The translations under genes and the position numbers were made by a program. From the NCBI GenBank assembly GCA_036405895.1, contig DASWWS010000001.1, positions 71,864 to 135,863 of the forward strand: DNA of 64,000 bases, in the 5' to 3' direction. Positions 3,016 to 20,506 of this stretch are shown piece by piece (position 1 is the stretch's first letter; each line of letters starts with the position of its first letter). The notes below the pieces were generated by a model that made no database searches, had not been told where the DNA came from, and saw nothing but the letters and a program-made list of their open reading frames with translations. The stretch is from Minisyncoccota bacterium (GTDB lineage Bacteria > Patescibacteriota > Minisyncoccia > Phycocordibacterales > UBA9973).

Positions 3016-3537
3016 ATGAAAAACCGCGGATTCACTTTAATCGAACTCCTTGTCGTTATTGCAGTTATTGGCATTCTTGCATCAGTGGTGATGGCAAGTT
3101 TAAACAGTGCTCGAGTGAAAGCCCGAAACGCGCGAAGGACAAGCGATATAAAACAACTATCGAATGCATTTCATCTAGGGCTTGATGGAACCGGGTCACT
3201 TCCAAGCAGTAATGGCACGTGGGCATGCGTCAGTGCAACGTGTTATGACGGATGGAGCGTACAAGCCCCTGTTGCTGCAGTCGATACCTATCTCGCACCA
3301 TATCTTCCTACAAAGCCATCGGACCCAGTGGGAGGGTCCCGCGGATATGGCGGGTATTTATATCTTAGTGCTTGGGTAGGGAGCGTTCGCTATAACGGAC
3401 TCACCTATCCTGCAGGAGCATACCTTTATTGGAATGTTGAGATGCCTGCAACAGAAAGTTCATGCGCTCCAGGTGGAATTTTGAGCTTTGGCACAAGCGG
3501 AACCTATGCCTCTTGTATGCTCCAACTTAATACATAG
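3016..3537 (+). CDS. Type IV pilin-like protein (prepilin-type N-terminal cleavage/methylation domain), paralog 1
   Basis: MKNRGFTLIELLVVIAVIGILASVVMASLNSAR class III signal. Conserved Cys pair (WACVSATCY) and YLAPYLPxKPSDPVGGSRGYGGYLY block shared with the paralogs at 3793 and 11711. Confidence 0.8.
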   Translation: MKNRGFTLIELLVVIAVIGILASVVMASLNSARVKARNARRTSDIKQLSNAFHLGLDGTGSLPSSNGTWACVSATCYDGWSVQAPVAAVDTYLAPYLPTKPSDPVGGSRGYGGYLYLSAWVGSVRYNGLTYPAGAYLYWNVEMPATESSCAPGGILSFGTSGTYASCMLQLNT

Positions 3538-3792: not shown

Positions 3793-4314
3793 ATGAAAAA
3801 CCGCGGGTTTACCCTCATTGAACTTTTGGTAGTCATCGCGGTGATCGGCATTTTGGCAAGTGTTGTGATGGCAAGTTTAAACTCTGCGAGAGTGAAGGCC
3901 CGTAATGCTCGCCGAAGCAGCGACATCAAGCAGCTCTACAATGCCTTTCAGCTTGGTCTTGATACTACAGGAGCGCTTCCTAATAATGGAGCAGCATGGT
4001 CATGTGTGAGCGCAACGTGCTATGAAGGGTGGAGTGGTAACACAGCGCACGCAACAGTGGATGCATATCTTGCACCGTATCTTCCCAGCAAGCCGTCCGA
4101 CCCAGTTGGCGGAAGTCGGGGGCATGGAGGATATCTTTATAATGTTGCATGGCCCGGGAGTGTTGCATATGACGGCTACACATTTCCTGCAGGATCATAT
4201 ATCTACTGGCTCCCTGAAGCTCCGCTCGGGCCCAACTCATGCGCACCAGGGCGATTGTTGGCAGTTGCTTCGGGTGGTAACTACGCAGCATGCATGCTCC
4301 AGCTAGATCGCTAA
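3793..4314 (+). CDS. Type IV pilin-like protein, paralog 2 (tandem to 3016-3537)
   Basis: The first ~50 aa are near-identical to paralog 1. The C-terminal domain is divergent but keeps the same Cys positions. Confidence 0.8.
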   Translation: MKNRGFTLIELLVVIAVIGILASVVMASLNSARVKARNARRSSDIKQLYNAFQLGLDTTGALPNNGAAWSCVSATCYEGWSGNTAHATVDAYLAPYLPSKPSDPVGGSRGHGGYLYNVAWPGSVAYDGYTFPAGSYIYWLPEAPLGPNSCAPGRLLAVASGGNYAACMLQLDR

Positions 4315-4392: not shown

Positions 4393-7305
4393 ATGCAATA
4401 CCACTTTTTTAAAAAACTTTTTTATGCACTGAGTATTCTCGCGATAGTATTTTCCGCAACTTCGCCTGTTGTTTTTGCGGCTCCGGGCGTACCAAACATT
4501 GTCAACTATCAAGGAAGGCTTACTGATAATGCAGGCAGACTTCTTGGTGGAAGCGGCACCAATTATTATTTTCGTTTTTCATTGTGGACTACTCCTACGG
4601 TAGGAGGCGGAAGCAAGCTGTGGCCTGCTGGCCAGCCGGGCACGGTAACTACAAACGTTGTCGATGGGGTGTTTAATGTAAACATTGGCGACACCGTAAA
4701 CGGCTATCCTGATGCGCTCGATTACAATTTCAACGATAGTGATGCGGTGTACCTACAAATCGAAGTATCAAGCAACGGATCTTCATTTGAAACACTTGGT
4801 CCTCGCCAGCGCATCGTTTCGAGTGGGTACGCGATTAATGCGCAGACGGTCGCTGGTCTTGCTCCCGGAACTAGTGCAAACAATATCCTCACGCTCGGCG
4901 CAGACGGAGAGATAGTGCTTTCAAGCACTGGCGTTTCAACGCTTGGGGATATTGCTGCGGGAGTCATTTCAGCCGGTACATGGAATGGGTCTGCTATTGA
5001 AGACACATATTTTGTGAAGACAGGAGATTGGACGGGGTTGTTTGACGGAAACGAGGGAAGCTATTATTTGGACGCAAACAATCTCACAAACTTTGATACA
5101 CGCATTGCAACCGCAGTCGCAAGCCTCACCACCGACGACATCGCAGAGGGCGACAACAATTTTTATTTCAGCAACACGCTTGCGCGCGGAGCGCTTTCGG
5201 CGGGGAGTGGTATAACGTATGACAACACGAGTGGCGTCATTTCAAACAGTGGAGCGCTTTCATTCAATACGCGAACAGGGGACATCACGCTTGTTTCCGG
5301 CGACGTGACGGACGCGCTCGGCTTTGCGCCAATGAACCCATCAGGAACGACGGCGCAGTATTTCCGGGGAAACGGCACGCTTGCAACATTTCCAACAACA
5401 GTGTCATCGTTTACTAACGATAGCGGGTTTATAACAGGCAACCAAACGATTACTCTTTCAGGAGATATTTCAGGGTCGGGCACCACCGCAATCACTACTG
5501 CCATAGGTGCAGGGAAGGTGACCAATACCATGCTGGCAGGCTCTATTGCAGCATCAAAACTTGTTGGTACTGATATTGTCACTGTTGGGACAATCGGGGC
5601 GGGTACATGGAATGGCACAGTAATTACTCCTGCATATGGTGGAACAGGAGTGAGCACTATTACGGGAATCGTAAAAGGAAACGGTACCTCGGCATTTACG
5701 GCTGCAGTTGCCGGTACAGACTATGAAGTCCCTTTGACATTTTCGACCGGGCTCACGCGCTCTACAAATACAATAACAATTGATAACACTGTGGTGACCC
5801 TGACAGGGAGCCAGGCACTTTCGAATAAGACTGGGAATATTTCACAGTGGACCAACGATGTCGGATATGCGACAGGGGGCGGAACTGCTTCTGGAACAAA
5901 TACCGGAGACATTACGCTTGGAACAATTGGTTCATCTCCTAACACAAGCGGCGCAAGCCTGGTAGGGCAAGTACTGACCTTGCAGCCCGCAGATGCAACG
6001 CGCGGAGGAGTGTTGACGGCAACGGCACAGGAGATTTTAGGAGAAAAAAAATTCCTCAATCGAATCGTCATTGAAAAGTCAGTCGACTCGTCTTTTATTG
6101 CAAACTCTACAACCGGGCGCTCGGTGGCAGTGGTGTCTGGCGCATTGAAGTCATCGTTTCTTTTTGATAACGGCGGGCCTTTCTCAATTCAAACCAATAC
6201 AAAAGCAAATGTTAACAACGGAACGCCGAGCGGTGTTTCACTTCTTGAGCTCAGTGCCACAGGGGATATGTCAATCGGTACGACTACTGCAGCTGACCAG
6301 CCGCGCCTCGATGTTCTTGTAGCAACTGCAAGTATTACCACTGCAAGCCGTACTGTTATACGCGGACGCAACGCTGGCTCGTCATTTGTCACTTCAGGAC
6401 AAGCAAAGACAAACTATATCGCCGAGTTTATCAATACTGCCACTCGAAGTACCGGTGCAAACAATCTTACCAATGTGGCGCTCTATGCTTCTGCAAGCGG
6501 GGCACAGGTAAACTACGCGGGTATTTTTGCGGCAGGGAATGTGGGTATTGGGGATGTGACCCCGGACTACACGCTCGACGTGAAGGGGACAATTTGTCAG
6601 GACACTGATTCAGACGAAACCTGTGACGGGTCGGTTACTTCTGATGCGCGATTAAAAACAAATATCGAAACTATTCCTTCGGCCCTTGAAAAAATCAGAC
6701 AGCTTCGAGGGGTGTACTTTGATTGGGACGAAACGAACAGCCATACGGCATTTCTTGGACGCGGGACTCGGCAGGTAGGAGTAATCGCGCAGGAAATCGA
6801 AGCGGTATTTCCTTCGCTTATTTATCGAGACAGCAGCGGGTATCGAATGGTCGACTATCAAAAACTCACCGGGCCGTTGATTGAGGCGGTAAAAGAGCTT
6901 GATATACAGGTCCAAGCAATTCCTGTATATGAAGACGAAACATTCACAGAAAAAATTGCTGACTTTTTGCGAGGTATTGCCGAGCGCGGAGAAGCGATTA
7001 TCGATACGGTCCGCGCAAAGAAATTGTGCGCAGAAGACGTGTGCATCAACCGCGACCAGCTCCAAGAGATGATTGAGTACATCAACAACCAACAAGAACA
7101 GTCTTCCGGAGGATCTTCATCGAATCCTCCAGTAGATGAAGAAATTCCGCCAGGCGATGCAGAGCCTGAAGGAGATACTGTGCCGGAAGGGGGAGAAGAT
7201 ACTCCGCCTGCTGAAGAAGAGCTGGTACTGGAAGAAACACCCGAACCCGAACCTGTTCCCGAAGAAAGTCCTGAACCAGAACCTGAATCACCTCCAGTCG
7301 AATAA
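4393..7305 (+). CDS. Secreted tail-fibre-like surface protein with a C-terminal intramolecular chaperone auto-processing domain (peptidase S74-like) and an acidic Pro/Glu-rich tail
   Basis: Signal peptide. N-terminal IVNYQGRLTD...LW...GVFNVNIG motif. Long Gly/Thr/Ser-rich beta-type repeats. TSDARLKTNIETIPSALEKIRQLRGVYFDWDE...VGVIAQEIEAVFPSLI...GYRMVDYQKLTGPLIEAVKEL matches the S74 chaperone-of-endosialidase signature. The last ~70 aa are PE-rich. Confidence 0.75.
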   Translation: MQYHFFKKLFYALSILAIVFSATSPVVFAAPGVPNIVNYQGRLTDNAGRLLGGSGTNYYFRFSLWTTPTVGGGSKLWPAGQPGTVTTNVVDGVFNVNIGDTVNGYPDALDYNFNDSDAVYLQIEVSSNGSSFETLGPRQRIVSSGYAINAQTVAGLAPGTSANNILTLGADGEIVLSSTGVSTLGDIAAGVISAGTWNGSAIEDTYFVKTGDWTGLFDGNEGSYYLDANNLTNFDTRIATAVASLTTDDIAEGDNNFYFSNTLARGALSAGSGITYDNTSGVISNSGALSFNTRTGDITLVSGDVTDALGFAPMNPSGTTAQYFRGNGTLATFPTTVSSFTNDSGFITGNQTITLSGDISGSGTTAITTAIGAGKVTNTMLAGSIAASKLVGTDIVTVGTIGAGTWNGTVITPAYGGTGVSTITGIVKGNGTSAFTAAVAGTDYEVPLTFSTGLTRSTNTITIDNTVVTLTGSQALSNKTGNISQWTNDVGYATGGGTASGTNTGDITLGTIGSSPNTSGASLVGQVLTLQPADATRGGVLTATAQEILGEKKFLNRIVIEKSVDSSFIANSTTGRSVAVVSGALKSSFLFDNGGPFSIQTNTKANVNNGTPSGVSLLELSATGDMSIGTTTAADQPRLDVLVATASITTASRTVIRGRNAGSSFVTSGQAKTNYIAEFINTATRSTGANNLTNVALYASASGAQVNYAGIFAAGNVGIGDVTPDYTLDVKGTICQDTDSDETCDGSVTSDARLKTNIETIPSALEKIRQLRGVYFDWDETNSHTAFLGRGTRQVGVIAQEIEAVFPSLIYRDSSGYRMVDYQKLTGPLIEAVKELDIQVQAIPVYEDETFTEKIADFLRGIAERGEAIIDTVRAKKLCAEDVCINRDQLQEMIEYINNQQEQSSGGSSSNPPVDEEIPPGDAEPEGDTVPEGGEDTPPAEEELVLEETPEPEPVPEESPEPEPESPPVE

Positions 7306-8612
7306 TGACTTCCTTTCCGTATAAAAAAAGTATCATAGCGTTTGCCTTAAGCATATCTCTTGGAGTACTGATGCATCCCGAGAATGGCTTTGGTATTACG
7401 CCAACCTCTTCAAGTTACACTGTACATAACCCGGTCATTACCAGTGGCTTTGCCTCAATGGCATCCGGAAATTTTGGATTAGGCCAGTCATTTGGTCAAT
7501 CGGTTATCGGCAAGTCGCTTTCATCATCATTTGCAGTGTGGAGCGGATTTCAATATTTTGCCAGTGCGGGAACATTCACCCTTTCCGGGGTGGGGGGATC
7601 AAGTCAGGCGCAACTTTCTTGGACAATACCCGAGGTATTTAACGGAGCAGTTATTTCCGGGTATGAAGTGGGAATCGGGACAACATCGGGCTCGTATACG
7701 TTTCAGGATGTTGGGAATGTCACTTCGTTTACAAAAACAGGGCTCAATAACAATACGCCGTACTATTTTTTAGTGAAAGCGCACACTGCTTCAGGTGCAC
7801 CATTGTCGTTTTCCAATGAAGTGAGTATTACTCCAACAGGAACTATTACCCCGCCAGGCGGCGGTGGTGGTGGAGGGGGAGGAGGCAGTTCAACGGGGAC
7901 GGGGAGCGTTATTGTTTCAGGAATCGCATATCCGGGAGCGACAGTCGTTATTCTTAAAGACGGCAAGATTGAAACACAAACCACTGCCGACCCCGGAGGC
8001 GCATTTAACGTGCTTCTCTCAAGCCTTCGCGCAACCCACTATGCAATCGGCGTGTATGCCGAGGATACTGCAGGAAGAAAATCTCCTCCATACAGTTTTC
8101 CGGTCACGCTTGCAGACCAAGTCACAATTACTATTGCCAACGTATTTCTTGCGCCAACTATCGGCGTTGATAAGTCGGTCGTTGCGCAAGGAGAGCCGAT
8201 TGGAATTTTCGGTTCTTCCGCACCTAATACGCAGGTGAATATTTATGTGCACTCCGCGCAAGAGTTTGTGGAGAAGGTGACTTCAACTACCACCGGTGCG
8301 TGGTTTAAGCAGTTCGACACCACCTTTCTTGAAATAGGAGACCATAGTACATTTTCTCGCGCTGTGCTTTCTGACCAAGTAACGAATACCAGTGTGACAG
8401 TACCGTTCGTTGTGGGTACAACATCAGTTCCGATAGAGACGCTCGGTCGGAGCGACTTGAACAACGACGGGCGCGTGAACATTACCGACTTTTCCATGCT
8501 CTTGTACTATTGGCAAGGAACCCCGCCGCCCGGTTCAAAGGTGGATATTATAAAAGACGGCATTGTTAACAGTACAGACCTCTCAATCATGCTCTATGAT
8601 TGGACTGGATAA
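7305..8612 (+). CDS. Secreted FN3-domain protein with a poly-Gly linker and a C-terminal dockerin (two Ca-binding repeats)
   Basis: The start overlaps the previous stop (TAATG). FN3-like block (GYEVGIGTTSGSYTFQDVGNVTSFTKTGLNNNTPYYFLVKAHT). G10 linker. C-terminal DLNNDGRVNITDFSMLLYYW ... DIIKDGIVNSTDLSIMLYDW matches DxNxDGxVNxxD twice. Confidence 0.7.
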   Translation: MTSFPYKKSIIAFALSISLGVLMHPENGFGITPTSSSYTVHNPVITSGFASMASGNFGLGQSFGQSVIGKSLSSSFAVWSGFQYFASAGTFTLSGVGGSSQAQLSWTIPEVFNGAVISGYEVGIGTTSGSYTFQDVGNVTSFTKTGLNNNTPYYFLVKAHTASGAPLSFSNEVSITPTGTITPPGGGGGGGGGGSSTGTGSVIVSGIAYPGATVVILKDGKIETQTTADPGGAFNVLLSSLRATHYAIGVYAEDTAGRKSPPYSFPVTLADQVTITIANVFLAPTIGVDKSVVAQGEPIGIFGSSAPNTQVNIYVHSAQEFVEKVTSTTTGAWFKQFDTTFLEIGDHSTFSRAVLSDQVTNTSVTVPFVVGTTSVPIETLGRSDLNNDGRVNITDFSMLLYYWQGTPPPGSKVDIIKDGIVNSTDLSIMLYDWTG

Positions 8613-8616
8613 AATT

Positions 8617-9729
8617 ATGAAAATACTTTTGCAAAAAATTATCAGTACAATTATTTTTAGTGTATCTCTCTGCGTTCTTTTCGCAACGCCAAGCAGTGCT
8701 GCCACCCTTTCAGCAAGTGCGGCCCAACAGCAAGTGTATGCGGGAGATACGTTTGCAGTGGAATGGTTTCTCGATACAGAAAATCAATCAATCAATTTGA
8801 TTGACGCAGTGCTAACGTATTCATCAGAAACACTAGAAGTCATTGAACTCTCAACGGGTGTTTCCTCGTTTACGCTGTGGCCAAACCAGCCATATGTTCT
8901 CCGTGCTGGAACTATTAGCCTTACCGGAGGTATCCCTGCCGGAATTACAGGCGCGCGCGTGCGAGTACTGCGCACCGTATTTCGCGCAACTGCTCCCGGA
9001 ACTGCGACCATTGCCACCGCAGCTCCTTCACAGGTACTGCTTAACGACGGAATTGCAAGTGCACGGCCTCTTGGTGTGACACCTGTGGTTTTTGAAGTAC
9101 TGCCGGGCGACAGCGCGCCGTACAGCATCTACTCAACCACGCATCCGCTGGAAAACGTCTGGTACAAAAATACGCATGTGGAAATTGATTTTACACAAAT
9201 AAAGGGAGAAGAATACAGCTACAGCTTCAGCACAAATGCAGAACTTATTCCCGACGCTGTGCCGGACAAAGCAAGGACGCCGATTGTGTACGACAATATG
9301 CCAGACGGCGTGTATTACTTTACCCTGGCAAGCCGCTCTGGTGGCGGAGCGTGGCACGAAGCGCGCGTTTTTCGCGTACAGATCGATACCCAAGCTCCCG
9401 AATTTATTGATGCAAACATAGCGACAGATGAATCTCTGTTTGAAGGAAAAGCATTTGCAACATTTGCGGCAGTGGATAAGACTTCCGGTATTGAAAAGTA
9501 TGCAATAAAGAGCGGATGGTTTGGAACGTATAAGACTGCGACAACACCGTTTGAACTTCGCCGGCCGATTGTGGGAGATACGACATACATCCGTGCAATT
9601 GATAGGGCAGGAAATGTACAAACAACTGCGATCAATTTCCCTGGATACAGTAGACCGTTGTATGCGTATGTTGTTATACTATTGATACTAATAATTGTCG
9701 CTCTACGAATTCGACGAATACATTCATGA
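8617..9729 (+). CDS. Membrane-anchored cohesin-like domain protein
   Basis: Signal peptide (start moved to the ATG at 8617; the alternative upstream start is 8563). The N-terminal ~150 aa follow the cohesin-like pattern (ATLSASAAQQQVYAGDTFAVEWFLDTENQSINLIDAVLTYSSETLEVIELSTG...GITGARVRVLRTVFRATAPGTATIA...VLLNDG). Second beta-rich domain. C-terminal TM helix. Confidence 0.55.
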   Translation: MKILLQKIISTIIFSVSLCVLFATPSSAATLSASAAQQQVYAGDTFAVEWFLDTENQSINLIDAVLTYSSETLEVIELSTGVSSFTLWPNQPYVLRAGTISLTGGIPAGITGARVRVLRTVFRATAPGTATIATAAPSQVLLNDGIASARPLGVTPVVFEVLPGDSAPYSIYSTTHPLENVWYKNTHVEIDFTQIKGEEYSYSFSTNAELIPDAVPDKARTPIVYDNMPDGVYYFTLASRSGGGAWHEARVFRVQIDTQAPEFIDANIATDESLFEGKAFATFAAVDKTSGIEKYAIKSGWFGTYKTATTPFELRRPIVGDTTYIRAIDRAGNVQTTAINFPGYSRPLYAYVVILLILIIVALRIRRIHS

Positions 9730-10511
9730 AAAAAATTACGTTCTCTTTTTTGATAGTTCTTATTGCATGGTTTTGTGCAAGCGCTCCTGCAACAGCAGCT
9801 ACGCTTGTTGTGACTCCTCCGAGCGCGAGTGTTACCGAGGGTTCGACATTCTCCGTGAGCGTGCGAACTGATACGCAAGGACAGTCAGTCAATGTTGCCG
9901 AAGCGACTGTCGGGTTTTCAACAGACACCCTTGAAATAGTGAGCGTCAGTCCCGGCGCTACGTTTACCCTTCAGACCCCTGGCTCGCCAAGTAAAACCGC
10001 ATCAACGGCGTACTTTTCTGCGGGGATTCCTTCGGGCTACAACGGCTCGGCCGGGATGCTGGGCCGTATTACCTTCCGCGCAAAAAAGGCAGGGAAAGCA
10101 ACAATCAGCGTAACGTCCGGGAAAGTACTATTGAATGATGGAAATGCAACAAATGCGCTCAATGGAACTTCTGGTTCCGTAATCACTATCACGCCAAAAC
10201 CGGCTGTTGAACCGACAACTCCTATTAAAGAACCAGAAACCGCTGTTGTACCTCCTTCAATAGAAACACAGCCAGTAGTGGAAATGCCGATTGTTGTTAC
10301 TCCAACGCCTGTTCCAGAACCTGCGACCACGACTATTAGAACAAAAGATCTCTTCACTCTTATTTACATACTGATCGGCATTATCTTTATCCTTCTCGGG
10401 GTAATAATCGCACTCATTGCCGTGATTGCTCATAGAAAACCACTACCTCCCGTTGTACGAAAACCTCGCGCGAAAAAAGCAAAAGAAGAAGTACGGCTTT
10501 CGGATATCTAA
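9726..10511 (+). CDS. Membrane-anchored cohesin-like domain protein (paralog of 8617-9729)
   Basis: ATGA overlap with the upstream gene. Signal peptide. The domain is homologous to the previous gene's (ATLVVTPPSASVTEGSTFSVSVRTDTQGQSVNVAEATVGFSTDTLEIVSVSPG ... KVLLNDG). Pro/Thr linker, a C-terminal TM helix and a basic tail. Confidence 0.55.
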   Translation: MKKITFSFLIVLIAWFCASAPATAATLVVTPPSASVTEGSTFSVSVRTDTQGQSVNVAEATVGFSTDTLEIVSVSPGATFTLQTPGSPSKTASTAYFSAGIPSGYNGSAGMLGRITFRAKKAGKATISVTSGKVLLNDGNATNALNGTSGSVITITPKPAVEPTTPIKEPETAVVPPSIETQPVVEMPIVVTPTPVPEPATTTIRTKDLFTLIYILIGIIFILLGVIIALIAVIAHRKPLPPVVRKPRAKKAKEEVRLSDI

Positions 10512-10512
10512 T

Positions 10513-11001
10513 ATGAAGAACCGAGGATTCACTCTTATCGAACTTTTGGTGGTAATCGCAATCATCGGTATCTTGGCGTCAGTTGTTTTAGCTTCTCTTA
10601 ACAGTGCAAGGAAAAAAGCGCAAGACACAAAAATCAGAGCAGAGCTAAAGCAGTTAGCAACTGCCCTTGAATTCTATTTTGATAAATACGGTACCTATGT
10701 TGTTGCTGCTAGTGGGTGGAATGACTGTGGATGCGGGTATGTGACAAGCGATGCTGGACCAAGTGGAAGGACGATAGTACAAGCTCTTGTTGCAGAAGGA
10801 TTCATGTCAACAGATTTTGATGAGCCGGGCGGCATCAATTATATGCTCTATAATTGCGGTACCGAGCGTTATGCGCTCTCTGCAACCTTAAACAACCCCA
10901 CCGCACAGGATATTGCGTATGCTCAAACGACTTGTAATGCAACCGGAGGAAACGGCACCTATTCCCATTATGGGAAAAACTTTTCCATAGAAAAGCTCTA
11001 G
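10513..11001 (+). CDS. Type IV pilin-like protein, paralog 3
   Basis: MKNRGFTLIELLVVIAIIGILASVVLASLNSARKKAQDTK... Start moved to the ATG at 10513, two bases after the previous stop. Confidence 0.8.
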   Translation: MKNRGFTLIELLVVIAIIGILASVVLASLNSARKKAQDTKIRAELKQLATALEFYFDKYGTYVVAASGWNDCGCGYVTSDAGPSGRTIVQALVAEGFMSTDFDEPGGINYMLYNCGTERYALSATLNNPTAQDIAYAQTTCNATGGNGTYSHYGKNFSIEKL

Positions 11002-11023: not shown

Positions 11024-11704
11024 ATGAAAAAAACAATCACTTGGATTATTGTACTTTTGGCTATTGGGGCGGGAGCATTTTTGTACTTGACTCGACCGGT
11101 AAAGGTAGAGGATAGCAGCACTACAGCGGGAGTTGAATCCGAGCTTTCTGCGGACAATAAAAAGGGAGAAACACTCTATCGAATCAACAAAGAGCAGTCG
11201 ACCGCAAAGTTCACGATTAAAGAAGATCTTCGCGGTGAGCCATTTACTGTTGTAGGAACAACCAATGATATAAGCGGGGATGTTGTTCTTAAGACGGAAG
11301 GAAAGGCAGAGCTTACGATTGGAACAATTCTTATCGACGTTCGCACCTTCAAAACTGACAATGCAAATCGGGACGGCGCAATCAATCGCCTCATTGTGCA
11401 GACCGGTACAGAGGGTCATGAATATGCAGTACTTACGAACACTTCTGTTTCCGGTCTTCCTGAAACGATTACTGTAGGCACCCCATTTACGTTTGAGGTA
11501 ACAGGAGACCTAATGCTTGCAGGAATAAAGAAACCGGCAACCTTTGCAGTAACTGCAACACAGAACGAGGGTTCATTGTCGGGAACATTGAGCTCAACCT
11601 TGAAGCGCTCTGACTACAAACTCGTTATTCCGAACATTCCGTTTGTTGCAAATGTGTCTGACGACTTTGTTGTCAGCGCGGACTTTGTTGCAGTAGCGCA
11701 ATAA
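11024..11704 (+). CDS. Secreted YceI-like domain protein
   Basis: Signal/TM. The core ...KFTIKEDLRGEPFTVVGTTNDISGDVVL...IDVRTFKTDNANRDGAINRLIV... resembles the YceI family. Confidence 0.55.
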   Translation: MKKTITWIIVLLAIGAGAFLYLTRPVKVEDSSTTAGVESELSADNKKGETLYRINKEQSTAKFTIKEDLRGEPFTVVGTTNDISGDVVLKTEGKAELTIGTILIDVRTFKTDNANRDGAINRLIVQTGTEGHEYAVLTNTSVSGLPETITVGTPFTFEVTGDLMLAGIKKPATFAVTATQNEGSLSGTLSSTLKRSDYKLVIPNIPFVANVSDDFVVSADFVAVAQ

Positions 11705-11710
11705 TACATA

Positions 11711-12232
11711 ATGAAAAACCGAGGCTTCACCTTAATAGAGCTCCTTGTTGTTATTGCAGTGATTGGCATTTTAGCATCTGTTGTTTTAGCGAGCTTGAAT
11801 AGTGCTCGCGTTAAGGCTCGTAATGTTCGTCGCAATGCGGACATCCGGGAATTGCAAAGTGCCTTTGCTTTGGCAGCAAGCGATACAGGATCGATGCCGA
11901 GCTCTGCCGGAAACTTTGAGGGGTGGGCATGCGTCAGTGCTACATGCTATCAAGGATGGAGTATATATAGTGCCAACAGCACAGTGGATACCTTTATCGC
12001 AACAACGATGCCGTCAAAACCTATTGACCCTCCGGGCGGTCGCGGATACGGCGGATATTTGTACCATAGTTCATCATTGGGAGCCACTAACTATGATGGA
12101 AGTGTTACCACTGCAGGCCCCGTATTACACTGGCTGTTGGAGCCACCCTACAAAGTTGGGATGTGTGGTGCCGGAAATGCAAACGCTGTAAATTCAAACT
12201 ATGTCGCCTGTGTTATTTCGATAGGAAGATAA
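11711..12232 (+). CDS. Type IV pilin-like protein, paralog 4
   Basis: The same N-terminus plus the WACVSATCYQGWS and PPGGRGYGGYLY blocks shared with paralogs 1 and 2. Confidence 0.8.
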   Translation: MKNRGFTLIELLVVIAVIGILASVVLASLNSARVKARNVRRNADIRELQSAFALAASDTGSMPSSAGNFEGWACVSATCYQGWSIYSANSTVDTFIATTMPSKPIDPPGGRGYGGYLYHSSSLGATNYDGSVTTAGPVLHWLLEPPYKVGMCGAGNANAVNSNYVACVISIGR

Positions 12233-13429: not shown

Positions 13430-16384
13430 ATGGATACCTTTGGAGAGGCGTATAAGACCTTAAACACCAAGCAAAAGCAGGCGGTGGATGCTATTGAAGG
13501 GCCGGTCATGGTGATTGCGGGCCCGGGTACCGGCAAGACACAGGTTTTGAGCCTTCGCATTGCGAACATTTTAACCAAGACCGATACTCCGCCTGACGGC
13601 ATACTGTGTCTGACATTTACCAATGCCGGCGTCAAAGCGATGCGCGAACGCTTGATGCGCTATATCGGACCCGCGGCCCTTCGTGTGAAGGTAAACACTT
13701 TTCATAGTTTCGCACTTTCTTTAATCGAAGAGTTTTATCACGCACTCGATTATGATATGGTGCCGATGCTTTTGGAAGACACCTCAACGGTGGCACTGTT
13801 TGACGAATTGCTTCACATGCGCGAGTGGCACCATGTGCGCCCCCGCTCGAACCCTTCGATGTACTTTCGCGATCTCAAATCCCTCATTTCAACTCTCAAG
13901 CGCGACCGTATTACCCCCGCTGCTTTTATTGAAAGCATAGAGCGCGAAATGGAGACACTGCGAAATGATCCTGCAAGCATCTCTTCTCGGGGAGAGACAA
14001 AGGGGCAGATAAAAAAAGACGTTGAAAAGAAATTGGAGAGCTTTGAGAGAAGTCTTGAAGCCGGAGCTTTTTATGCACTGTACGAAGAAGTGAAAAACGA
14101 ACGCGGGCTGATTGACTACAATGATGTGTTGGAGCATTTGGTAAAGCTTGTGGAAGTATCAGACGATGTGCGAGACACGATTCGGGAGCGATACTTGTAT
14201 GTATTGGTTGATGAGCACCAGGATTCAAGTGGTATTCAAAACGAATTCTTGCGGTTGGTATGGGCCGATACGGAACAACCAAACCTCTTTGTGGTGGGGG
14301 ATGATAGGCAGCTGATTTATGGATTTGGCGGTGCATCGCTTTCGCACTTTGAAGCATTCACGCGCGGCTTCGGTGAAGTTGCGCTTATTACCCTTACCGA
14401 GAACTACCGCTCCACACAAACAGTATTGGATATGGCAGAGGCGCTCTTGCAGAGTGATATGGCCGAAGGCAAGCTTACGGGAAATACGCTTGAAGCTCAC
14501 TCTCTGAAGCTGGTTGAAGCAAGCTATCCTCGTGACGAAATTATTCTCGCCGGCCTTTTCATGCAGGAAAAAATAGCAGCAGGGACAGACAGTAATGACT
14601 GTGCAATCTTGGTGCCCAAAAACCGCCAGGTAAAAAGTGCAATGCAAACGCTTCGCGATATGGGATTGCCGGTTGCTGCGAGTACAACATTGCAGTTGTT
14701 TGAGCTACCCGAAGCGCAGTCCTTGTTGAACGTGCTTCGCGTGGTTGCGAATCCGTTTGACAGTGTTTCACTGGTCCATTCGCTCCTTGACCCGCTCTCG
14801 AGCATCCCACCCCTGATTGCACACCGCTTTCTTTCTGCTCACAAAAAACCAACACTTGAAACACTCCTTCAGTCTGAAGATGAACCAGTACACAAATGGG
14901 CGATGAGCATTTCTGTATGGCTTTCTGTTGCACAGACAACAGACGCATACGGGCTTATTCAGCACATTGCCGAAGACTGTTTTCTTGTGGCAGAAGCGGG
15001 GGACGACGTAGTACGTCGGCGTGTTGAAATTGTCCGTACATTTTTGCATCTTGCGCTTTCGCAAAGCGAGCGTGGGACAAAGGTAACTGTCAGCGACTTT
15101 CTTTCATTTATTGCGCGCTTGGAAGAGTACAACGAAGACATTCCGCTTGCGGTGTTTGGTGCAGGCCATGGAATAAAAGTCCTCACATTACACGGCTCAA
15201 AAGGGCTTGAATTTGATGCGGTATGGATTGCGCATATGGACGAGCGCTCACTGATGGGAAGCAAGCGTCAGGCTTTTGCACTGCCTGAGGACTTATTAAA
15301 AGAAGAAGCGCTCCACGACGAATCGGTAAAAAAGCGCGAGCTCTATGTTGCAATCACTCGCGCAAAGCGGTTTTGCACTATTTCTTCTGCACGCCATAGT
15401 TATAGTGGGGCAGACCAAGTGCTTGCAAGCGTAGTGTCTGCACTACCAAGCGAACTCTTTGAAAAAAGCACAGCCGAAGAATCAGAGGCTCTTATTCTCA
15501 GTACTGCCCCGCGCTTGTACATCGACGCAGTACCGCCTGAAAAAACCGAAACGCATGATGTATTGCAAGAATTGGTGCGGGAAGAATATGCAAAACGCCG
15601 CGTATCGGTGACGATGCTCAATAACTTTTTTGAATGCACCTGGAAGTGGTATTTTAGAAACCTTCTGCAATTGCCGGAGCCAGAAAACGAGTCTCTCCAT
15701 GTTGGTACGGTAGTGCACGGCGCGATTGAGGCAGTGCTTAAAAACGGCGTTGTTGGTCTTGAAGAAACAATAGAGACGCTCGCGCTTCGCGAGGCACGCT
15801 ATGACGAAGTGCATGCAAGCCGGCTGGTTGCTCAAGCAACGCCGATTGTGAATTCATGGATTAAAACCACGCTTCCGGATATTGTAGCGCCGTATAGTAC
15901 AGAGCGTGCACTTTCGTATGTTGACCCCGACTTCGCGCATCTTACGTTGTTTGGAAAAATCGACTTGGTGGAAGAAATCATTACCGACGAAGTGCGCGTG
16001 ACAGACTGGAAAACAGGGAGTACAAAAACAAAGGCCGACATTGAAAAAGTCGATGAAGAGGGGCGAATGTCAGCGTATCTCCGCCAGCTCGCGATGTATT
16101 CGTATCTGTTGCAAGGCATGACGCGCGACAATACAAGTGTGTCAGAGTCCCGATTGGTCTTTCTTGAAGCAAAGGCGGGGGATAAGAACGCCATTGTATC
16201 TCGGCGCATCGCAGGAGAGGAGGTTGCAAAATTGCGCCAGGATATCCGGGATTATGATGAATTGGCAAAAACAGGAGCGTGGATGGCGCGTCCGTGCCGC
16301 GCGAAACTCTATAGAGAGGGGGACGTGTGCGAATACTGCGCTATGGCCCATAAATACGGGGTTTTACAGCGTATTAGCGAGTAA
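13430..16384 (+). CDS. UvrD/PcrA-family DNA helicase fused to a C-terminal PD-(D/E)XK nuclease with a Cys4 (Cas4/AddB-like Fe-S) cluster
   Basis: Walker A (AGPGTGKT). UvrD motifs (DEHQDSS, VVGDDRQLIYGF, TENYRS). C-terminal FFECTW (Cys1) ... IDLVEE...DWKTG (D/E-K) ... YLRQLAMYSYL ... CRAKLYREGDVCEYCAMA (Cys2-4). Confidence 0.8.
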   Translation: MDTFGEAYKTLNTKQKQAVDAIEGPVMVIAGPGTGKTQVLSLRIANILTKTDTPPDGILCLTFTNAGVKAMRERLMRYIGPAALRVKVNTFHSFALSLIEEFYHALDYDMVPMLLEDTSTVALFDELLHMREWHHVRPRSNPSMYFRDLKSLISTLKRDRITPAAFIESIEREMETLRNDPASISSRGETKGQIKKDVEKKLESFERSLEAGAFYALYEEVKNERGLIDYNDVLEHLVKLVEVSDDVRDTIRERYLYVLVDEHQDSSGIQNEFLRLVWADTEQPNLFVVGDDRQLIYGFGGASLSHFEAFTRGFGEVALITLTENYRSTQTVLDMAEALLQSDMAEGKLTGNTLEAHSLKLVEASYPRDEIILAGLFMQEKIAAGTDSNDCAILVPKNRQVKSAMQTLRDMGLPVAASTTLQLFELPEAQSLLNVLRVVANPFDSVSLVHSLLDPLSSIPPLIAHRFLSAHKKPTLETLLQSEDEPVHKWAMSISVWLSVAQTTDAYGLIQHIAEDCFLVAEAGDDVVRRRVEIVRTFLHLALSQSERGTKVTVSDFLSFIARLEEYNEDIPLAVFGAGHGIKVLTLHGSKGLEFDAVWIAHMDERSLMGSKRQAFALPEDLLKEEALHDESVKKRELYVAITRAKRFCTISSARHSYSGADQVLASVVSALPSELFEKSTAEESEALILSTAPRLYIDAVPPEKTETHDVLQELVREEYAKRRVSVTMLNNFFECTWKWYFRNLLQLPEPENESLHVGTVVHGAIEAVLKNGVVGLEETIETLALREARYDEVHASRLVAQATPIVNSWIKTTLPDIVAPYSTERALSYVDPDFAHLTLFGKIDLVEEIITDEVRVTDWKTGSTKTKADIEKVDEEGRMSAYLRQLAMYSYLLQGMTRDNTSVSESRLVFLEAKAGDKNAIVSRRIAGEEVAKLRQDIRDYDELAKTGAWMARPCRAKLYREGDVCEYCAMAHKYGVLQRISE

Positions 16385-16441
16385 AAGGACTATTCGTCAA
16401 CTCGCTCTCACTCTATAAAAATGCTATAATTTGCAGACTAA

Positions 16442-18523
16442 ATGGCAAAATCTGAAGCGGAAAAAAAGAAAGGCGGAAGCTATGGAGCAGACCAAATCTC
16501 AGTCCTTGAAGGACTTGAGCCGGTGCGCCGCCGACCGGGTATGTACATTGGCTCTACAGGGCCGACTGGTCTTCACCACCTTGTATGGGAAATTTTCGAT
16601 AACTCACGCGACGAGGCGATGGGCGGCTTTGCCGACCATGTTGAACTCACCCTTTTGCCGAACAACCAAGTGCGCGTTGTCGACAACGGTCGAGGGATTC
16701 CTGTAGGTATTCATCCAAAAACAAAAGTATCCGCCCTTGAAACGGTGATGACTACGCTTCACGCGGGAGGAAAATTCGGAGGAGATGACTCGGGGTACAA
16801 GGTGTCCGGAGGTCTTCACGGCGTGGGCGCGTCAGTGGTAAATGCGCTCTCTGACTATACGCGCGCAGAAGTGCACAAAGAAGGTGCGGTGTGGGTGCAG
16901 GAATATTCGCAAGGGAATAAAAAGGCTGCGGTAAAGAAAATCGGCACGACAAAAAACAACGGAACGATCATTACTTTCCAGCCGGACCCGACTATTTTTA
17001 AAGAAGGAATCGTGTTTGATTGGAAAACCATCGTCGACCACCTTCGCCAGCAGGCATACCTCGTCAAGAAACTTCGTGTCACTATTATTGATGCTCGAAA
17101 CGTTGAAGAGTCATTTGATGCAACAAAAGCATTTTGGTTTACCGAGCTTGCCATTGAAGCGCCTTCCATTACGTACTACTTTGAAGGAGGGATACAGTCT
17201 ATGGTGCGCCATTACAACCAGCATCAAAAGCCGATCCACGACACCGTATTTTATTGCGAAAAGGATCAGGACAATGTCGGCATTGAAATTGCACTCCAGT
17301 ATGTTGACGATATTTCAGCGCGCATCGTGCCGTTTGCAAACAACATCTACAACCCCGAGCAGGGAACACATGTTACCGGTTTTAAAACAGCGCTTACCCG
17401 TGTGCTCAATACATACGGCAAGAAAAACAACCTCATCAAAGACGCTGACGGCCCGTTTACCGGAGACGACGTTTTGGAGGGCCTCACTGTAGTGATTTCT
17501 GTAAAGCTCGCTGAAATTCAATTTGAAGGACAGACGAAAGCAAAGCTCGGAAGCATGGAAGCACAGGGTGCGACTACCACTGTCTTTGGTGACGCGTTCT
17601 CAACATTTTTGGAAGAGAATCCTGACCAGGCAAAGGCTATCATTATGAAAGGCCTTTTGGCACTGCGTTCACGAAAAGCTGCGAAAGCTGCAAAGGATAA
17701 TATTCTTCGCAAGGGCGCGCTAGAAGGAATGACACTGCCGGGCAAGCTCGCTGACTGCCAGACCAAAGATGCTTCTGAGAGCGAGCTGTTTATCGTTGAG
17801 GGTGACTCTGCTGGCGGTACGGCAAAGATGGGGCGTGACCGCCGTACCCAAGCTATTTTGCCGCTTCGAGGAAAAATCCTTAACGTTGAGCGCGCTCGAC
17901 TCGACCGCATGCTCGGAAGTCAGGAGATTAAGAACCTTGTCATTGCAATGGGGACTTCAATCGGAGACACCTTTGATCTTGAAAAGATGCGCTACCACAA
18001 GATTGTGCTTGCAACGGACGCGGACACTGACGGCGGGCACATCCGCACACTTATCCTCACGCTCTTCTATCGCTACTTCCGAGCAGTGATTGAGGCGGGC
18101 TATGTTTACATTGCGCAGCCGCCACTCTACAAAATCAAAAAAGGGAAAGAGCTTTTTTATGCGTACAACGATACTGAAAAAGAGGCAGTGCTCAAGCAAA
18201 TCGGAGGAGGCGATGTGCCCGAGGTGGTCTTAGAAGAAGGAGAAGAGGCGATGTCTGAAGAAGAGGAGGATGGAGAAGGCGAAGAGACAAAGAAGAAGCG
18301 CGCAACCAAAATCTCTATCCAGCGATACAAAGGTTTGGGTGAAATGAACTCAGACGAATTGTGGGAAACCACCATGGACCCAGCGCGCCGAGTGATGAAG
18401 CAAATCACGATTGACGATGCTGTAGAAGCCGACAATATCTTCGATGTCCTGATGGGCTCAGAAGTTGCTCCGCGAAAGAGCTTCATCCAGGCTAATGCCA
18501 AGCTCGCAAACCTCGATATATAA
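16442..18523 (+). CDS. gyrB: DNA gyrase subunit B (type IIA topoisomerase ATPase subunit)
   Basis: GHKL ATPase motifs (GLHHLVWEIFDNSRDE, GLHGVGASVVNALS). Toprim EGDSAGG. PLRGKILNVE. Acidic insertion near the C-terminus. Confidence 0.85.
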   Translation: MAKSEAEKKKGGSYGADQISVLEGLEPVRRRPGMYIGSTGPTGLHHLVWEIFDNSRDEAMGGFADHVELTLLPNNQVRVVDNGRGIPVGIHPKTKVSALETVMTTLHAGGKFGGDDSGYKVSGGLHGVGASVVNALSDYTRAEVHKEGAVWVQEYSQGNKKAAVKKIGTTKNNGTIITFQPDPTIFKEGIVFDWKTIVDHLRQQAYLVKKLRVTIIDARNVEESFDATKAFWFTELAIEAPSITYYFEGGIQSMVRHYNQHQKPIHDTVFYCEKDQDNVGIEIALQYVDDISARIVPFANNIYNPEQGTHVTGFKTALTRVLNTYGKKNNLIKDADGPFTGDDVLEGLTVVISVKLAEIQFEGQTKAKLGSMEAQGATTTVFGDAFSTFLEENPDQAKAIIMKGLLALRSRKAAKAAKDNILRKGALEGMTLPGKLADCQTKDASESELFIVEGDSAGGTAKMGRDRRTQAILPLRGKILNVERARLDRMLGSQEIKNLVIAMGTSIGDTFDLEKMRYHKIVLATDADTDGGHIRTLILTLFYRYFRAVIEAGYVYIAQPPLYKIKKGKELFYAYNDTEKEAVLKQIGGGDVPEVVLEEGEEAMSEEEEDGEGEETKKKRATKISIQRYKGLGEMNSDELWETTMDPARRVMKQITIDDAVEADNIFDVLMGSEVAPRKSFIQANAKLANLDI

Positions 18524-18553
18524 AAACTCCCACAACAGTGGGAGTTTTTATAT
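18524..18553. terminator. Bidirectional intrinsic terminator after gyrB
   Basis: aaaaactcccacaacagtgggagtttttat. Confidence 0.7.
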
Positions 18554-18741
18554 TAGAGAGCGTTTTTGATAAGTGTGCGGAGGTCTTCGATATGCTTTTC
18601 TTTATCTTCCATCAAAGTACTCCAGAATGCTTTTACTTCTTCAGTGTCCGCTTCGGGGAGGTAATTGTTTTTAATGCGCCAGAGGCTTTTTGATTCTTGT
18701 GTGAGCTGGGTCATCAGGTTGTATGTGTTGTTGTTTTCCAT
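18553..18741 (-). CDS. Hypothetical small protein (62 aa)
   Basis: ORF only. It lies downstream of and co-oriented with thrS. No recognisable domain. Confidence 0.35.
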   Translation of the reverse strand: MENNNTYNLMTQLTQESKSLWRIKNNYLPEADTEEVKAFWSTLMEDKEKHIEDLRTLIKNAL

Positions 18742-18748
18742 AAATATA

Positions 18749-20506
18749 TTATATATCCTTTCGGTTTGTTATTTCGCCGATAATGCGGGTGATGAAATCT
18801 TCAGTTGAAATATTCTCAAGCTTAAGTTCTTTTCTCCCTTCAACGGTAAGGGTATTGCTCTCTATTTCCTTGTTTCCAATGATAATTTGGTAAGGAATTT
18901 TCTCTGTCTTTGCAGAGCGGATGCGTTTGCCGAGGCTGTCGTCCGTAAGAATGGTTGCACGAATGTCGCGCGCGCGAAGCGCTGCAAGAACACCCTGCGC
19001 ATACTCATTGTGAGCTTCCGCTACAGGGATAATCGCAACCGCTGTGGGTGCAAGCCACACAGGGAAGCTTCCTGCAAAGTGTTCAATCATCACGCCCATA
19101 AAGCGCTCAAGCGACCCGCTGATTGCGCGGTGAATCACTACCGGGCGCTCCTTCTCACCTTTTTCGTTGGTAAATGAAAGGTCAAAGCGTTCAGGCAGGT
19201 TAAAGTCGCATTGAATGGTTGCAAGCTGCCACTCGCGTCCGATTGCGTCTTTGAACATAAAGTCGAGCTTTGGTCCGTAAAATGCAGCCTCGTCTTTTGC
19301 GGGAGTATAAGGAAGATTTTCCGCAATACACACTTCAGTAAGTGCGCTCTCTGCCATATTCCATACTTCATCGCCCCCAAGATATTTTGAAGTATCGTCT
19401 CCCCGAAGAGAAAGACGCACCCAGTACCCCTCAATCATGCCCATGGTCGTATAAAATGACTTGATGATAGAGACGATTGTTTTGATTTCTTCCCCAATTT
19501 GCGTTGTGCGGCAGAAGAGGTGTCCGTCATCTTGCGTGATTGAGCGCACACGGGTAAGCCCGCCAAGCTGTCCGGTCTTTTCGTCGCGGTATACAGTAGC
19601 GGGTTCAAAGTAGCGTACCGGCATGTCTCGGTACGAGAATTGGTTGTCCGCAAAGATTTGCATGTGATGCGGACAGTTCATCGGCTTTACATAAAAATCT
19701 TCTTTAGAGCTCCCACCCTTAACGGCGAACATATCGTCCATATAGTGGCCGGCGTGCCCCGATACTTCATAGAGGCTTTCTTTTGCAAGGTGTGGAGTCC
19801 AGACGCGGTCGTACCCTTTGTCTTTGTGCAATTCCCATAAATAGTCTTCTACTGCCTTTCGTACAATCATGCCGTTGGGCTGAAAGAGCGGGAGACCTGC
19901 TCCGACAAGGTCGGAAATGGTAAAGAGCTTTAATTCTTTACCAAGCTTTCGGTGGTCGCGTTTTTTTCCTTCCTCAAGCTGCCACTCATGTTTTGCAAGG
20001 TCTTCTTTTGTGGAGAAGGCGAGACCGTAGATGCGGGTGAGCATAGGATTTTTTTCGCTGCCGCGCCAGTAGGCTCCGGCAACGCGGTCGAGCTTGAAAC
20101 TTTCTGCATCAATAACACTGAGGTCTTCAGTATGTCCGCCTCGACACAGGTCGGTGAAGTTGCCCATTGTGTAGAGAGTAATAACTTCACCCTTTGCGGC
20201 GATTTCATTGATAAGTTCTTCTTTGAATTGATTTCCCTTGAAGTGCTCCAATGCTTCTTCTTTGGTCACCCGCCTGTGGGTAATAGTGGTCCAGGTAGGG
20301 AGGAGTTCGCGCATACGCATTTCAATTGCAGGGAGTTCATTGGTGCCGATGGTGCCCGCAAACTTGATGTCGTAGTAAAAGCCGTCATCAACTGCAGGTC
20401 CGAGCGTGAGCTGTGCGTCAGGATAGAGCTCCATGACCGCAGCACCAAGGAGGTGGGCGAGGGAGTGGCGGGTGTGTTCAATAGTATTGGGATTGGTGTC
20501 AGACAT
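18749..20506 (-). CDS. thrS: Threonyl-tRNA synthetase, apparently lacking the N-terminal TGS domain
   Basis: HTRHSLAHLLGAAVMELYP (editing/SAD domain HxxxH). Class II motifs. The C-terminal anticodon-binding domain ends ...VAIIPV. Start trimmed to MSDTNPN (ATG at 20506), since the upstream 56 aa of the track ORF read through the promoter. Confidence 0.8.
   Translation of the reverse strand: MSDTNPNTIEHTRHSLAHLLGAAVMELYPDAQLTLGPAVDDGFYYDIKFAGTIGTNELPAIEMRMRELLPTWTTITHRRVTKEEALEHFKGNQFKEELINEIAAKGEVITLYTMGNFTDLCRGGHTEDLSVIDAESFKLDRVAGAYWRGSEKNPMLTRIYGLAFSTKEDLAKHEWQLEEGKKRDHRKLGKELKLFTISDLVGAGLPLFQPNGMIVRKAVEDYLWELHKDKGYDRVWTPHLAKESLYEVSGHAGHYMDDMFAVKGGSSKEDFYVKPMNCPHHMQIFADNQFSYRDMPVRYFEPATVYRDEKTGQLGGLTRVRSITQDDGHLFCRTTQIGEEIKTIVSIIKSFYTTMGMIEGYWVRLSLRGDDTSKYLGGDEVWNMAESALTEVCIAENLPYTPAKDEAAFYGPKLDFMFKDAIGREWQLATIQCDFNLPERFDLSFTNEKGEKERPVVIHRAISGSLERFMGVMIEHFAGSFPVWLAPTAVAIIPVAEAHNEYAQGVLAALRARDIRATILTDDSLGKRIRSAKTEKIPYQIIIGNKEIESNTLTVEGRKELKLENISTEDFITRIIGEITNRKDI

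Follow-up and report, generated by a model that had tools for sequence, protein, structure and literature searches.

We describe here three adjacent forward-strand genes, A (7305..8612), B (8617..9729) and C (9726..10511), in a 64,000-nucleotide (nt) stretch of contig DASWWS010000001.1 from a Minisyncoccota bacterium (the window, by which we mean this whole 64-kb stretch). Gene A encodes a secreted protein that ends in a dockerin, and the two genes behind it each encode a protein with one cohesin and a membrane anchor. We consider it probable, at roughly 70%, that the trio is a non-cellulosomal, Ca-dependent cohesin-dockerin cassette for surface anchoring, conserved across Patescibacteria (the candidate phyla radiation, CPR), and that A docks on B and/or C. 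From domain identities, topology elements, gene order and covariation, each described below, we infer this binding, its Ca dependence and stoichiometry and the biological role of the cassette, which probably plugs surface structures into the cell membrane. An earlier note on this DNA had pointed to a dockerin pair beside two cohesin-like membrane anchors; our analysis confirmed that observation and supported its interpretation, in which Ca-dependent binding is presumed.

The dockerin occupies residues 383-435 of A (8451..8609, + strand). It was recognized by Pfam Dockerin_1 (PF00404) at 34.8 bits, above the gathering threshold of 22.9, with the match running from residue 383 to 429 and covering profile positions 2-52 of 57; a sequence search of the PDB likewise matched residues 377-429 to cellulosomal dockerins. 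The C-terminus of the protein reads ...SDLNNDGRVNITDFSMLLYYWQGTPPPGSKVDIIKDGIVNSTDLSIMLYDWTG and holds Ca loop 1 at residues 384-395 (8454-8489, + strand; DLNNDGRVNITD) and Ca loop 2 at residues 414-425 (8544-8579, + strand; DIIKDGIVNSTD). Both dockerin repeats noticed earlier are thus present. In the AlphaFold2 model they form two tandem loop-helix segments of about 22 residues, with helices at residues 393-401 and 423-434 and a predicted local distance difference test score (pLDDT) of 81-93. A six-frame scan of the window found no dockerin-type loops besides these two. The Ca ligands of a dockerin loop are Asp at positions 1 and 12 and Asn or Asp at positions 3, 5 and 9 (PMC5590126). Loop 1 of A (D-L-N-N-D-G-R-V-N-I-T-D) satisfies every one of these positions and, judged by this pattern, the first Ca site appears intact. 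Across a 60-sequence alignment of the A family, D1, D5 and D12 of loop 1 were found in 60/60 members and N3 in 59/60. The two repeats are also highly symmetric, sharing T11, S14, L17, Y18, W20 and G22. Position 17, which corresponds to L400 in repeat 1 and L430 in repeat 2, is, along with positions 10 and 11, a recognized recognition position of dockerins (PMC5590126, PMC8063739). A Cys stands at loop-1 position 4 in 34 of the 60 family members, most of which have a second Cys about six residues upstream, shortly ahead of the dockerin (..C..RSDLNCDG..). This pairing suggests a disulfide clasp in those relatives; the window's protein A has neither Cys.

Genes B and C encode predicted type I membrane proteins, each with an N-terminal hydrophobic leader, a single cohesin and one C-terminal transmembrane (TM) helix, in keeping with the signal peptides and single helix that the earlier note had ascribed to both. 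In C (261 amino acids, aa), the leader is followed by a cohesin at residues 24-155 (nt 9795-10190), a Pro/Thr-rich linker, a TM helix at about residues 215-233 (10368-10424) and a 28-residue basic tail. Its cohesin was identified by Pfam with 30.6 bits, above the cut-off of 24.1, in a match of residues 29-152 to profile positions 3-137 of 139, and the NCBI entry that is 100% identical to it is named 'cohesin domain-containing protein'. The 370-aa B consists of a leader, a cohesin at about residues 25-162 (nt 8689-9102), two Ig-like domains at residues 171-340 (9127-9636), a TM helix at residues 347-369 (9655-9723) and a one-residue tail, and the database entry identical to it (100%) is named 'hypothetical protein VGE18_00375'. 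Its assignment rests on alignment, hhalign, AlphaFold2 and Foldseek. The B family (49-member alignment) matched the C family (34-member alignment) with an hhalign probability of 100% and an E value of 9.6e-44, and 12 of the 49 B-family members matched Pfam Cohesin themselves (best E 1.1e-7), while 15 of the 49 matched the Ig-like Y_Y_Y family. The AlphaFold2 model of B (pLDDT 93, predicted template modelling score 0.74) has a leader helix, a nine-strand sandwich at residues 29-162, and the two Ig-like domains and the TM helix at the positions given above. When it was compared with the PDB by Foldseek, the top match was 2w1n, a cohesin-FN3 construct of Clostridium perfringens GH84C (E 1.9e-10), and solved cohesins, including 2w1n, 6kgc, 2jh2 and 2vo8, gave TM-scores of 0.65-0.80 and an rmsd between 2.5 and 3.7 Å. 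By its profile-profile match to the C family and its predicted fold, then, B is a cohesin protein. The neighbours of A are accordingly not just unrelated Ig-like proteins, and the cohesin-like N-terminal domains proposed for them are backed by Pfam in C and by hhalign, family matches and predicted fold in B. The claim that B and C are mutual paralogs holds for the N-terminal module, where they share 39% identity over 125 residues (BLASTP 7e-20), including the TLE(V/I) and VLLNDG motifs. It does not extend further, as no similarity was found beyond this module and the remainder differs, B having two Ig-like domains where C has a Pro/Thr-rich linker. The second cohesin protein of most related loci continues after its TM helix into a conserved, charged cytoplasmic tail of 60-90 residues with the motif ...LT.EE...L..DL..AEK.I.KEI.DIE... 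(e.g., L013, 4608-6377, and L069, 11565-13280), which is absent from the window's C.

The three genes are tightly packed. B most likely starts at ATG 8617 (MKILLQ...), 4 nt past the stop of A, rather than at an upstream TTG at 8563, and the start of C overlaps the stop of B (ATGA). To place this arrangement in context, one genome per species of the GTDB set was scanned with an A-family profile, which gave at least 388 confirmed relatives, from which the best 80 loci were taken forward. Hidden Markov models for the A body, the dockerin, two cohesin types and the Ig pair of B were then searched in all open reading frames (ORFs) of these loci. All of the best 80 loci came from metagenome-assembled genomes (MAGs) of CPR bacteria, including Paceibacterota and Doudna-, Uhr-, Kaiser-, Magasanik-, Yanofsky-, Giovannoni-, Nomura-, Buchanan-, Harrison-, Nealson-, Jorgensen-, Colwell-, Taylor- and Torokbacteria, and Candidatus Microsyncoccus archaeolyticus (L069) is among the carriers. 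Eight loci (L010, L012, L016, L026, L027, L032, L054 and L066) are titled 'uncultured Gammaproteobacteria bacterium', yet they carry a CPR-type cassette; the labels on these co-assembly MAGs look unreliable. Downstream sequence was sufficient for a synteny count in 75 loci. At least two cohesin genes lay directly 3' of the dockerin gene and on the same strand in 73 of these 75, with exactly two in 56 loci, three in 16 and four in one, and the median gap between called ORFs was -4 nt. A TM segment followed the cohesin in 73/78 first, 73/74 second and 15/16 third cohesin proteins, and the cassette cohesins of related loci are, like those of B and C, one to a protein. The module of one dockerin to two anchors proposed by the earlier note is therefore backed by this gene order. 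Three homologue contexts showed the same order each time, a dockerin protein, a protein of about 380 aa and a cohesin protein, with different flanks. Since the flanks vary between loci, the trio is the conserved unit. The finding is not due to chance, because all three proteins have many full-length relatives, in which conservation is highest in the dockerin and cohesin motifs. A search of 1.84 billion representatives was dominated by giant multi-FN3 proteins and gave no usable family size. Promoter and terminator scans returned fewer sites than shuffled sequence or no more, and they consequently carry no information on operon boundaries.

Indirect evidence for a partnership came from covariation between the dockerin and the cohesins, which was computed across the 75 cassettes as mutual information (MI) with average product correction. 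The top MI z-scores of dockerin against cohesin columns were 7.7 for the first cohesin and 6.4 for the second, as compared to at most 5.8 for the Ig-like domains of A against the cohesins. The top pairs joined position 17 of both dockerin repeats (L400 and L430) to one and the same cohesin column, column 81, which is G105 in B and G100 in C and, going by strand order in the model, belongs to the sixth strand (beta-6). Where dockerin position 17 is Leu, Ile or Met (13 loci), column 81 is Gly in 13/13 first, 13/13 second and 5/5 third or fourth cohesins. Where it is Ala (62 loci, two of them with Val or Gly in repeat 1), Gly is found in 0/62 first, 2/62 second and 0/13 third or fourth cohesins, and the column is otherwise Ile, Val, Met or Leu. 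The pattern is size-complementary and almost exceptionless: there are two exceptions among about 168 cohesins, and the third and fourth cohesins conform in 18 of 18 cases. The 8-3-6-5 sheet of cohesin is established as its dockerin-binding face, reportedly through work by Carvalho and colleagues in 2003.

As the sequences are related, the MI z-scores are weak on their own, and the stronger argument is a class-association control for clade effects. This control covered 680 alignment columns, namely 347 from the A body, 60 from the dockerin, 136 from the first cohesin and 137 from the second. Only dockerin positions 17 and 17' predicted the cohesin class in 100% of cases, and one further dockerin column reached 85%, a level that none of the 347 A-body columns attained. 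The covariation thus suggests that A docks on the adjacent cohesins.

The rest of A fits a secreted, non-catalytic stalk protein of 435 aa, as judged from Pfam, the family alignment and the AlphaFold2 model. Its order is signal peptide, conserved N-region, FN3, a linker of ten Gly residues, Ig-like 1, Ig-like 2 and dockerin, and it is 100% identical to an NCBI entry named 'fibronectin type III domain-containing protein [Candidatus Paceibacterota bacterium]'. The model (pLDDT 82) shows a leader helix at residues 6-23, a low-confidence stretch at 24-83, the FN3, the unstructured Gly linker, two Ig-like domains and the two-helix dockerin. The FN3 (residues 91-174; 7575..7826, + strand) scored 34.6 bits with Pfam fn3 (cut-off 25) and is a high-confidence beta-sandwich in the model; in the PDB sequence search, residues 89-172 matched FN3 domains. 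Of the two Ig-like domains (residues 199-268 and 274-371; 7899..8417, + strand), the first was recognized by Pfam Big_6 at 35.7 bits (residues 202-267), and both are seen in the AlphaFold2 model. Structural neighbours of the model were tandem FN3/Ig arrays only, and neither the structure search nor Pfam revealed an enzyme fold. The Pfam scan also found no SLH or LPXTG match in A, B or C.

The linker of ten Gly codons, read directly from the sequence as GGCGGCGGTGGTGGTGGAGGGGGAGGAGGC, encodes residues 185-194 and spans 7857..7886 on the + strand. It is real and lies between the FN3 and Ig-like 1, as the earlier note had stated, but the span of 7858-7890 given there was incorrect and the string quoted was short by one GGT. 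Its flexibility is suggested by a pLDDT below 50 at residues 182-196, and in 60 family members the longest Gly run ranges between 1 and 11 residues. The N-region (residues 28-88; 7386..7568, + strand) is rich in Ser, Gly and aromatic residues. It has many near-invariant columns in the 60-sequence alignment, yet it is predicted to be disordered, with a pLDDT below 50 at residues 24-83. Among the loci searched, it is near-exclusive to A-family proteins, and it may fold only upon partner binding or oligomerization. The 87 dockerin-bearing proteins counted in the loci include 56 of the long form (N-region, FN3, Ig-like 1, Ig-like 2, dockerin) and 25 of a short form (Ig-like 1, Ig-like 2, dockerin). 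Because the short form lacks the N-region and FN3, the core of the family is Ig-Ig-dockerin. In L076 (6490-7497 and 9674-11683), the architecture of A is apparently split: a separate 335-aa gene consists of the N-region and FN3, and the short Ig-Ig-dockerin gene comes after a 319-aa Ig-containing gene.

Based on these features, we predict the following arrangement. Protein A would be exported via Sec and, having no membrane or wall anchor and no catalytic domain, would be unable to hold on to the cell alone. It would form a beads-on-a-string stalk of about four domains with a flexible Gly hinge, and its C-terminal dockerin would fold around Ca2+. The leaders of B and C would be cleaved on export, and both proteins would be retained in the cytoplasmic membrane by their single C-terminal TM helix, each with one N-terminal cohesin held off the membrane by two Ig-like spacers (B) or by the Pro/Thr-rich linker (C). 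The dockerin of A would then plug into the cohesin of B and/or C, so that A is tethered non-covalently and projects outward. Either cohesin probably accepts A, given the internal symmetry of the dockerin and the presence of the matching residue in both cohesins. Protein A likely displays or attaches a surface structure for cell-cell contact, possibly the fibre encoded upstream. A role in building the attachment surface would be the most economical one, given the host-attached life of CPR bacteria and the giant fibre genes that adjoin the cassette.

Several observations weigh against this reading. The Pfam scan bore out the domains expected from the earlier note in A (Dockerin_1, fn3 and Big_6) and C (Cohesin), all above their cut-offs, but B alone did not reach the gathering threshold of Cohesin (PF00963) or match otherwise. 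Profile searches against PDB sequences gave marginal cohesin matches for the B family (E 0.07-0.15) and chance matches of the TM region for the C family, which is why the fold comparison was needed. The objection raised in the earlier note, that the repeats might lack predicted Ca-binding geometry, does not apply to the module taken together, but it partly applies to repeat 2, where loop 2 (D-I-I-K-D-G-I-V-N-S-T-D) carries Ile, a non-ligand, at ligand position 3. The second site thus appears to lack one side-chain ligand, and one Ca site is possibly weak or lost. Asn or Asp fills position 3 of loop 2 in 52 of the 60 family members, whereas the two closest relatives of A have Ile or Leu there; position 5 is D, S or N and position 9 is D, G or N. 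This looks like lineage-specific erosion of one Ca site in A. The class switch also took few events, with 2 Fitch changes on the tree of the A Ig domains and 3-5 on the cohesin trees. With so few independent switches, the covariation is suggestive and not statistical proof. Lastly, other dockerin types occur in some CPR genomes, and B and C could therefore have other ligands.

The candidate for the displayed structure is the gene directly upstream of A, an associated gene outside the conserved trio. It encodes a 970-aa secreted fibre (4393..7305, + strand), and its stop overlaps the start of A (TAATG). The fibre has a signal peptide, a long repeat-rich body, an S74 chaperone and an acidic Pro/Glu-rich tail. 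Pfam Peptidase_S74 matched residues 750-809 at 60.2 bits, and the SDxxxK motif is present as SDARLK (...TSDARLKTNIE). The mosaic adhesive trimer (MAT) fibres of Bdellovibrio, which serve in prey recognition, carry an S74 chaperone/protease with the motif SDxxxK at their C-terminus, and what holds their N-domain at the surface is not known (PMC10769870). The 970-aa protein resembles them in its signal peptide, beta-rich N-domain, long fibre and C-terminal S74 with SDxxxK. It differs in that its N-domain matched the NCBIfam model NF053851 (Bdello_MAT_N) at 22.2 bits, far below the cut-off of 60, and no cohesin-dockerin link is known for MAT fibres; a related fibre in locus L072 scored 27.1 bits with the same model, also below cut-off. 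Giant ORFs show strong enrichment at this place. ORFs of at least 1000 aa were found within 6 kb of the A gene in 33/49 loci upstream and 3/50 downstream, and ORFs of at least 1500 aa in 26/49 and 1/50, respectively. The giant upstream ORFs lie on the same strand as the A gene. Of 51 large upstream proteins, 29 fell into one BLAST single-linkage cluster with the window's fibre, and an S74 region was detected in five. The giant ORFs make up two main BLAST clusters; members of the one without the window's fibre often have Gly-rich C-termini, some ending in ...ASP, ...AAP or ...QSP.

A more specific reading, which we regard as doubtful, is that the cassette would be the 'socket' by which CPR bacteria keep their giant host-recognition fibres on the cell, with A as an adaptor. 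On this reading, the N-region of A (residues 28-88), conserved though intrinsically unfolded, would capture the N-terminal domain of the upstream fibre, which in the window would be a MAT-like S74 trimer; two different TM cohesins, possibly both at once, would hold the symmetric dockerin of A; and the conserved cytoplasmic coiled-coil tail of one cohesin, seen in most lineages, could report or transmit load across the membrane. If true, this would be a new use of cohesin and dockerin, as a transmembrane-coupled anchor of an episymbiont attachment organelle, and would hint at the kind of surface element to seek for the MAT fibres of Bdellovibrio.

Returning to the anchoring cassette as such, it is conceivable that the neighbours are not partners, and that B and C dock dockerin proteins encoded elsewhere, or that the dockerin of A binds a cohesin on another protein or cell. 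Dockerin and cohesin genes are often unlinked in classical systems, and some CPR genomes have additional genes of both kinds. Locus L003, for example, carries a second cohesin/dockerin set at 16142-20386, a few kb downstream of its cassette, with a 433-aa cohesin protein that has poly-Pro linkers and two proteins of about 480 aa whose dockerin is of a distinct type (DLN.DG.VN..DWS.MN..W), N-terminal in one of them and C-terminal in the other. We nevertheless find this unlikely, given the near-universal adjacency on the same strand and the match of cassette cohesins, from first to fourth, to position 17 of the adjacent dockerin in all but two of about 168 cases. Moreover, no other part of A predicts the cohesin class, and the extra dockerins of L003 are clearly different in helix sequence.

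A second alternative, which we also hold to be improbable, is that the two modules do not bind each other at all, the cohesin-like sandwiches being adhesin or carbohydrate-binding domains and the EF-hand pair serving to stabilize A or to bind Ca2+. The cohesin fold does resemble beta-sandwiches of the carbohydrate-binding module (CBM) type, and the degenerate second Ca loop of A indicates that the dockerin tolerates erosion. A survey by Peer and colleagues in 2009 is said to have found dockerin-like repeats in many proteins that have no known cohesin partner, which would also count in favour of this alternative. It leaves unexplained, however, why one dockerin gene is kept beside two to four cohesin genes phylum-wide, and why the dockerin recognition position changes with the beta-6 residue of the cohesin in a size-complementary manner.

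Cohesin and dockerin are the defining modules of cellulosomes, and cohesin and dockerin proteins expressed by Candidatus Shapirobacterales in the deep subsurface were read as a cellulosome by Bell et al. (bioRxiv 10.1101/2021.08.21.457207). The trio could by analogy be a miniature cellulosome that assembles polysaccharide-degrading enzymes on the cell surface, but we consider this very unlikely. Protein A has FN3 and Ig folds only, with neither a catalytic nor a carbohydrate-binding module, and there is no multi-cohesin scaffoldin, since B and C each contain a single cohesin. The window proteins that were scanned include no glycoside hydrolase, the sole dockerin in the 64 kb is that of A, and anchoring is by TM helix and not by SLH or sortase. 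We rejected the least likely alternative, a prophage remnant made of a tail fibre with S74 chaperone and Ig-like accessories. Peptidase_S74 in the upstream gene is typical of phage tail spikes, and many structural proteins of phages are decorated with Ig-like domains. However, a search of 2.9 million viral contigs yielded no relative of A, the flanking genes are of the housekeeping kind (SecD/F-like, LemA-like and HtpX-like as read from translations, YceI, GyrB and ThrRS), the cassette stands in differing chromosomal contexts across many CPR lineages, and S74 fibres are also cellular adhesins in Bdellovibrio (PMC10769870).

The anchoring cassette that we favour shares several features with cellulosomal type I pairs, such as those of Clostridium thermocellum, C. 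cellulolyticum and C. acetobutylicum (PDB 1ohz, 2vn5 and 6kgc). These are a C-terminal two-repeat dockerin of Ca loops and helices on a secreted protein, a nine-strand cohesin and a position 17 that covaries with the cohesin. The high internal symmetry of the A dockerin further recalls dockerins with a dual binding mode. In contrast to type I pairs, the cassette has no enzymes, CBM or tandem-cohesin scaffoldin, its cohesins are anchored by a C-terminal TM helix, it pairs one dockerin protein with two to four single-cohesin membrane proteins, and its host is a reduced-genome CPR bacterium and not a cellulolytic Firmicute. Cohesins and dockerins outside cellulosomes were reportedly the subject of the 2009 survey by Peer and colleagues. 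Use outside plant-cell-wall degradation is shared with the non-cellulosomal pairs of Archaeoglobus fulgidus and of the C. perfringens GH-toxin complexes (2w1n/2jh2/2vo8). In C. perfringens, however, the modules are parts of secreted enzymes, which they link to one another, whereas the cassette has no enzyme and combines integral-membrane cohesins in a fixed, operon-like set. Capture of a dockerin component by a cell-bound cohesin is also known from anchoring scaffoldins, i.e., SdbA, OlpB and Orf2p with SLH and ScaE of Ruminococcus flavefaciens with a sortase signal. The cassette differs from these in its single TM helix in the cytoplasmic membrane, and the charged 60-90-residue tail found in most related loci but not in the window's C has no counterpart among them.

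A further comparison is with several proteins of host-dependent bacteria with small genomes. The metaproteome of Candidatus Shapirobacterales, a different CPR lineage, contained cohesin and dockerin proteins (bioRxiv 10.1101/2021.08.21.457207). SEML1_0315, a dockerin-domain protein of Southlakia epibionticum, is essential by transposon sequencing (PMC10633639), and dockerin repeats occur on giant ORFs of Omnitrophota (PMC10066038). Like the cassette, these place a dockerin or cohesin on envelope proteins, for which adhesion has been proposed. SEML1_0315 was considered as a member of the same system and rejected, since at 927 aa it is a stand-alone protein and its neighbours are different. In public annotation, C and some relatives of A and B are already described as containing a cohesin or dockerin. 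The literature that we searched had only passing mentions of CPR cohesins and dockerins, with no description of the cassette, the two specificity classes or the linkage to giant fibres.

CPR bacteria, which live attached to other cells, represent a large part of bacterial diversity, yet few of the molecules that make up their attachment surface are known. A cassette of three, and sometimes four or five, genes offers a testable handle on how surface structures are fixed to the membrane without SLH or sortase. It would join the strongest known class of non-covalent protein connectors to membrane anchors, usually beside giant fibre genes. The two specificity classes (Leu17 with Gly; Ala17 with Ile/Val) provide a ready mutational test, and they could yield small orthogonal connector pairs for engineering. 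Our analysis also serves as a warning that cohesin and dockerin matches in CPR genomes should not be read as cellulose degradation.

The block of fibre, dockerin and cohesin genes is flanked in the window by four pilin-like genes with a prepilin N-methylation motif, all on the + strand (3016-3537, 3793-4314, 10513-11001 and 11711-12232), three of which are 173-aa paralogues. The type IV pilin-like gene at 10513..11001 begins 1 nt after the stop of C (Pfam N_methyl, 40 bits; NCBIfam TIGR02532), and a YceI-like gene lies at 11024-11704. A pilus link to the cassette was considered and rejected, as L053, L068 and L069 were the only loci besides the window with pilin-like genes close to the cassette. 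The GC content of the window is even, at 0.41-0.50, and the remainder holds CPR housekeeping genes, including GyrB, ThrRS, NusB-NUDIX, RNase III, SMC, RNR, SecA, DnaE and pyruvate kinase. Two further large proteins are encoded on the + strand, one of 1164 aa with no Pfam match (50296-53790) and one of 1091 aa with DUF5122 beta-propeller repeats and a C-terminal peptidoglycan-binding domain (53858-57133).

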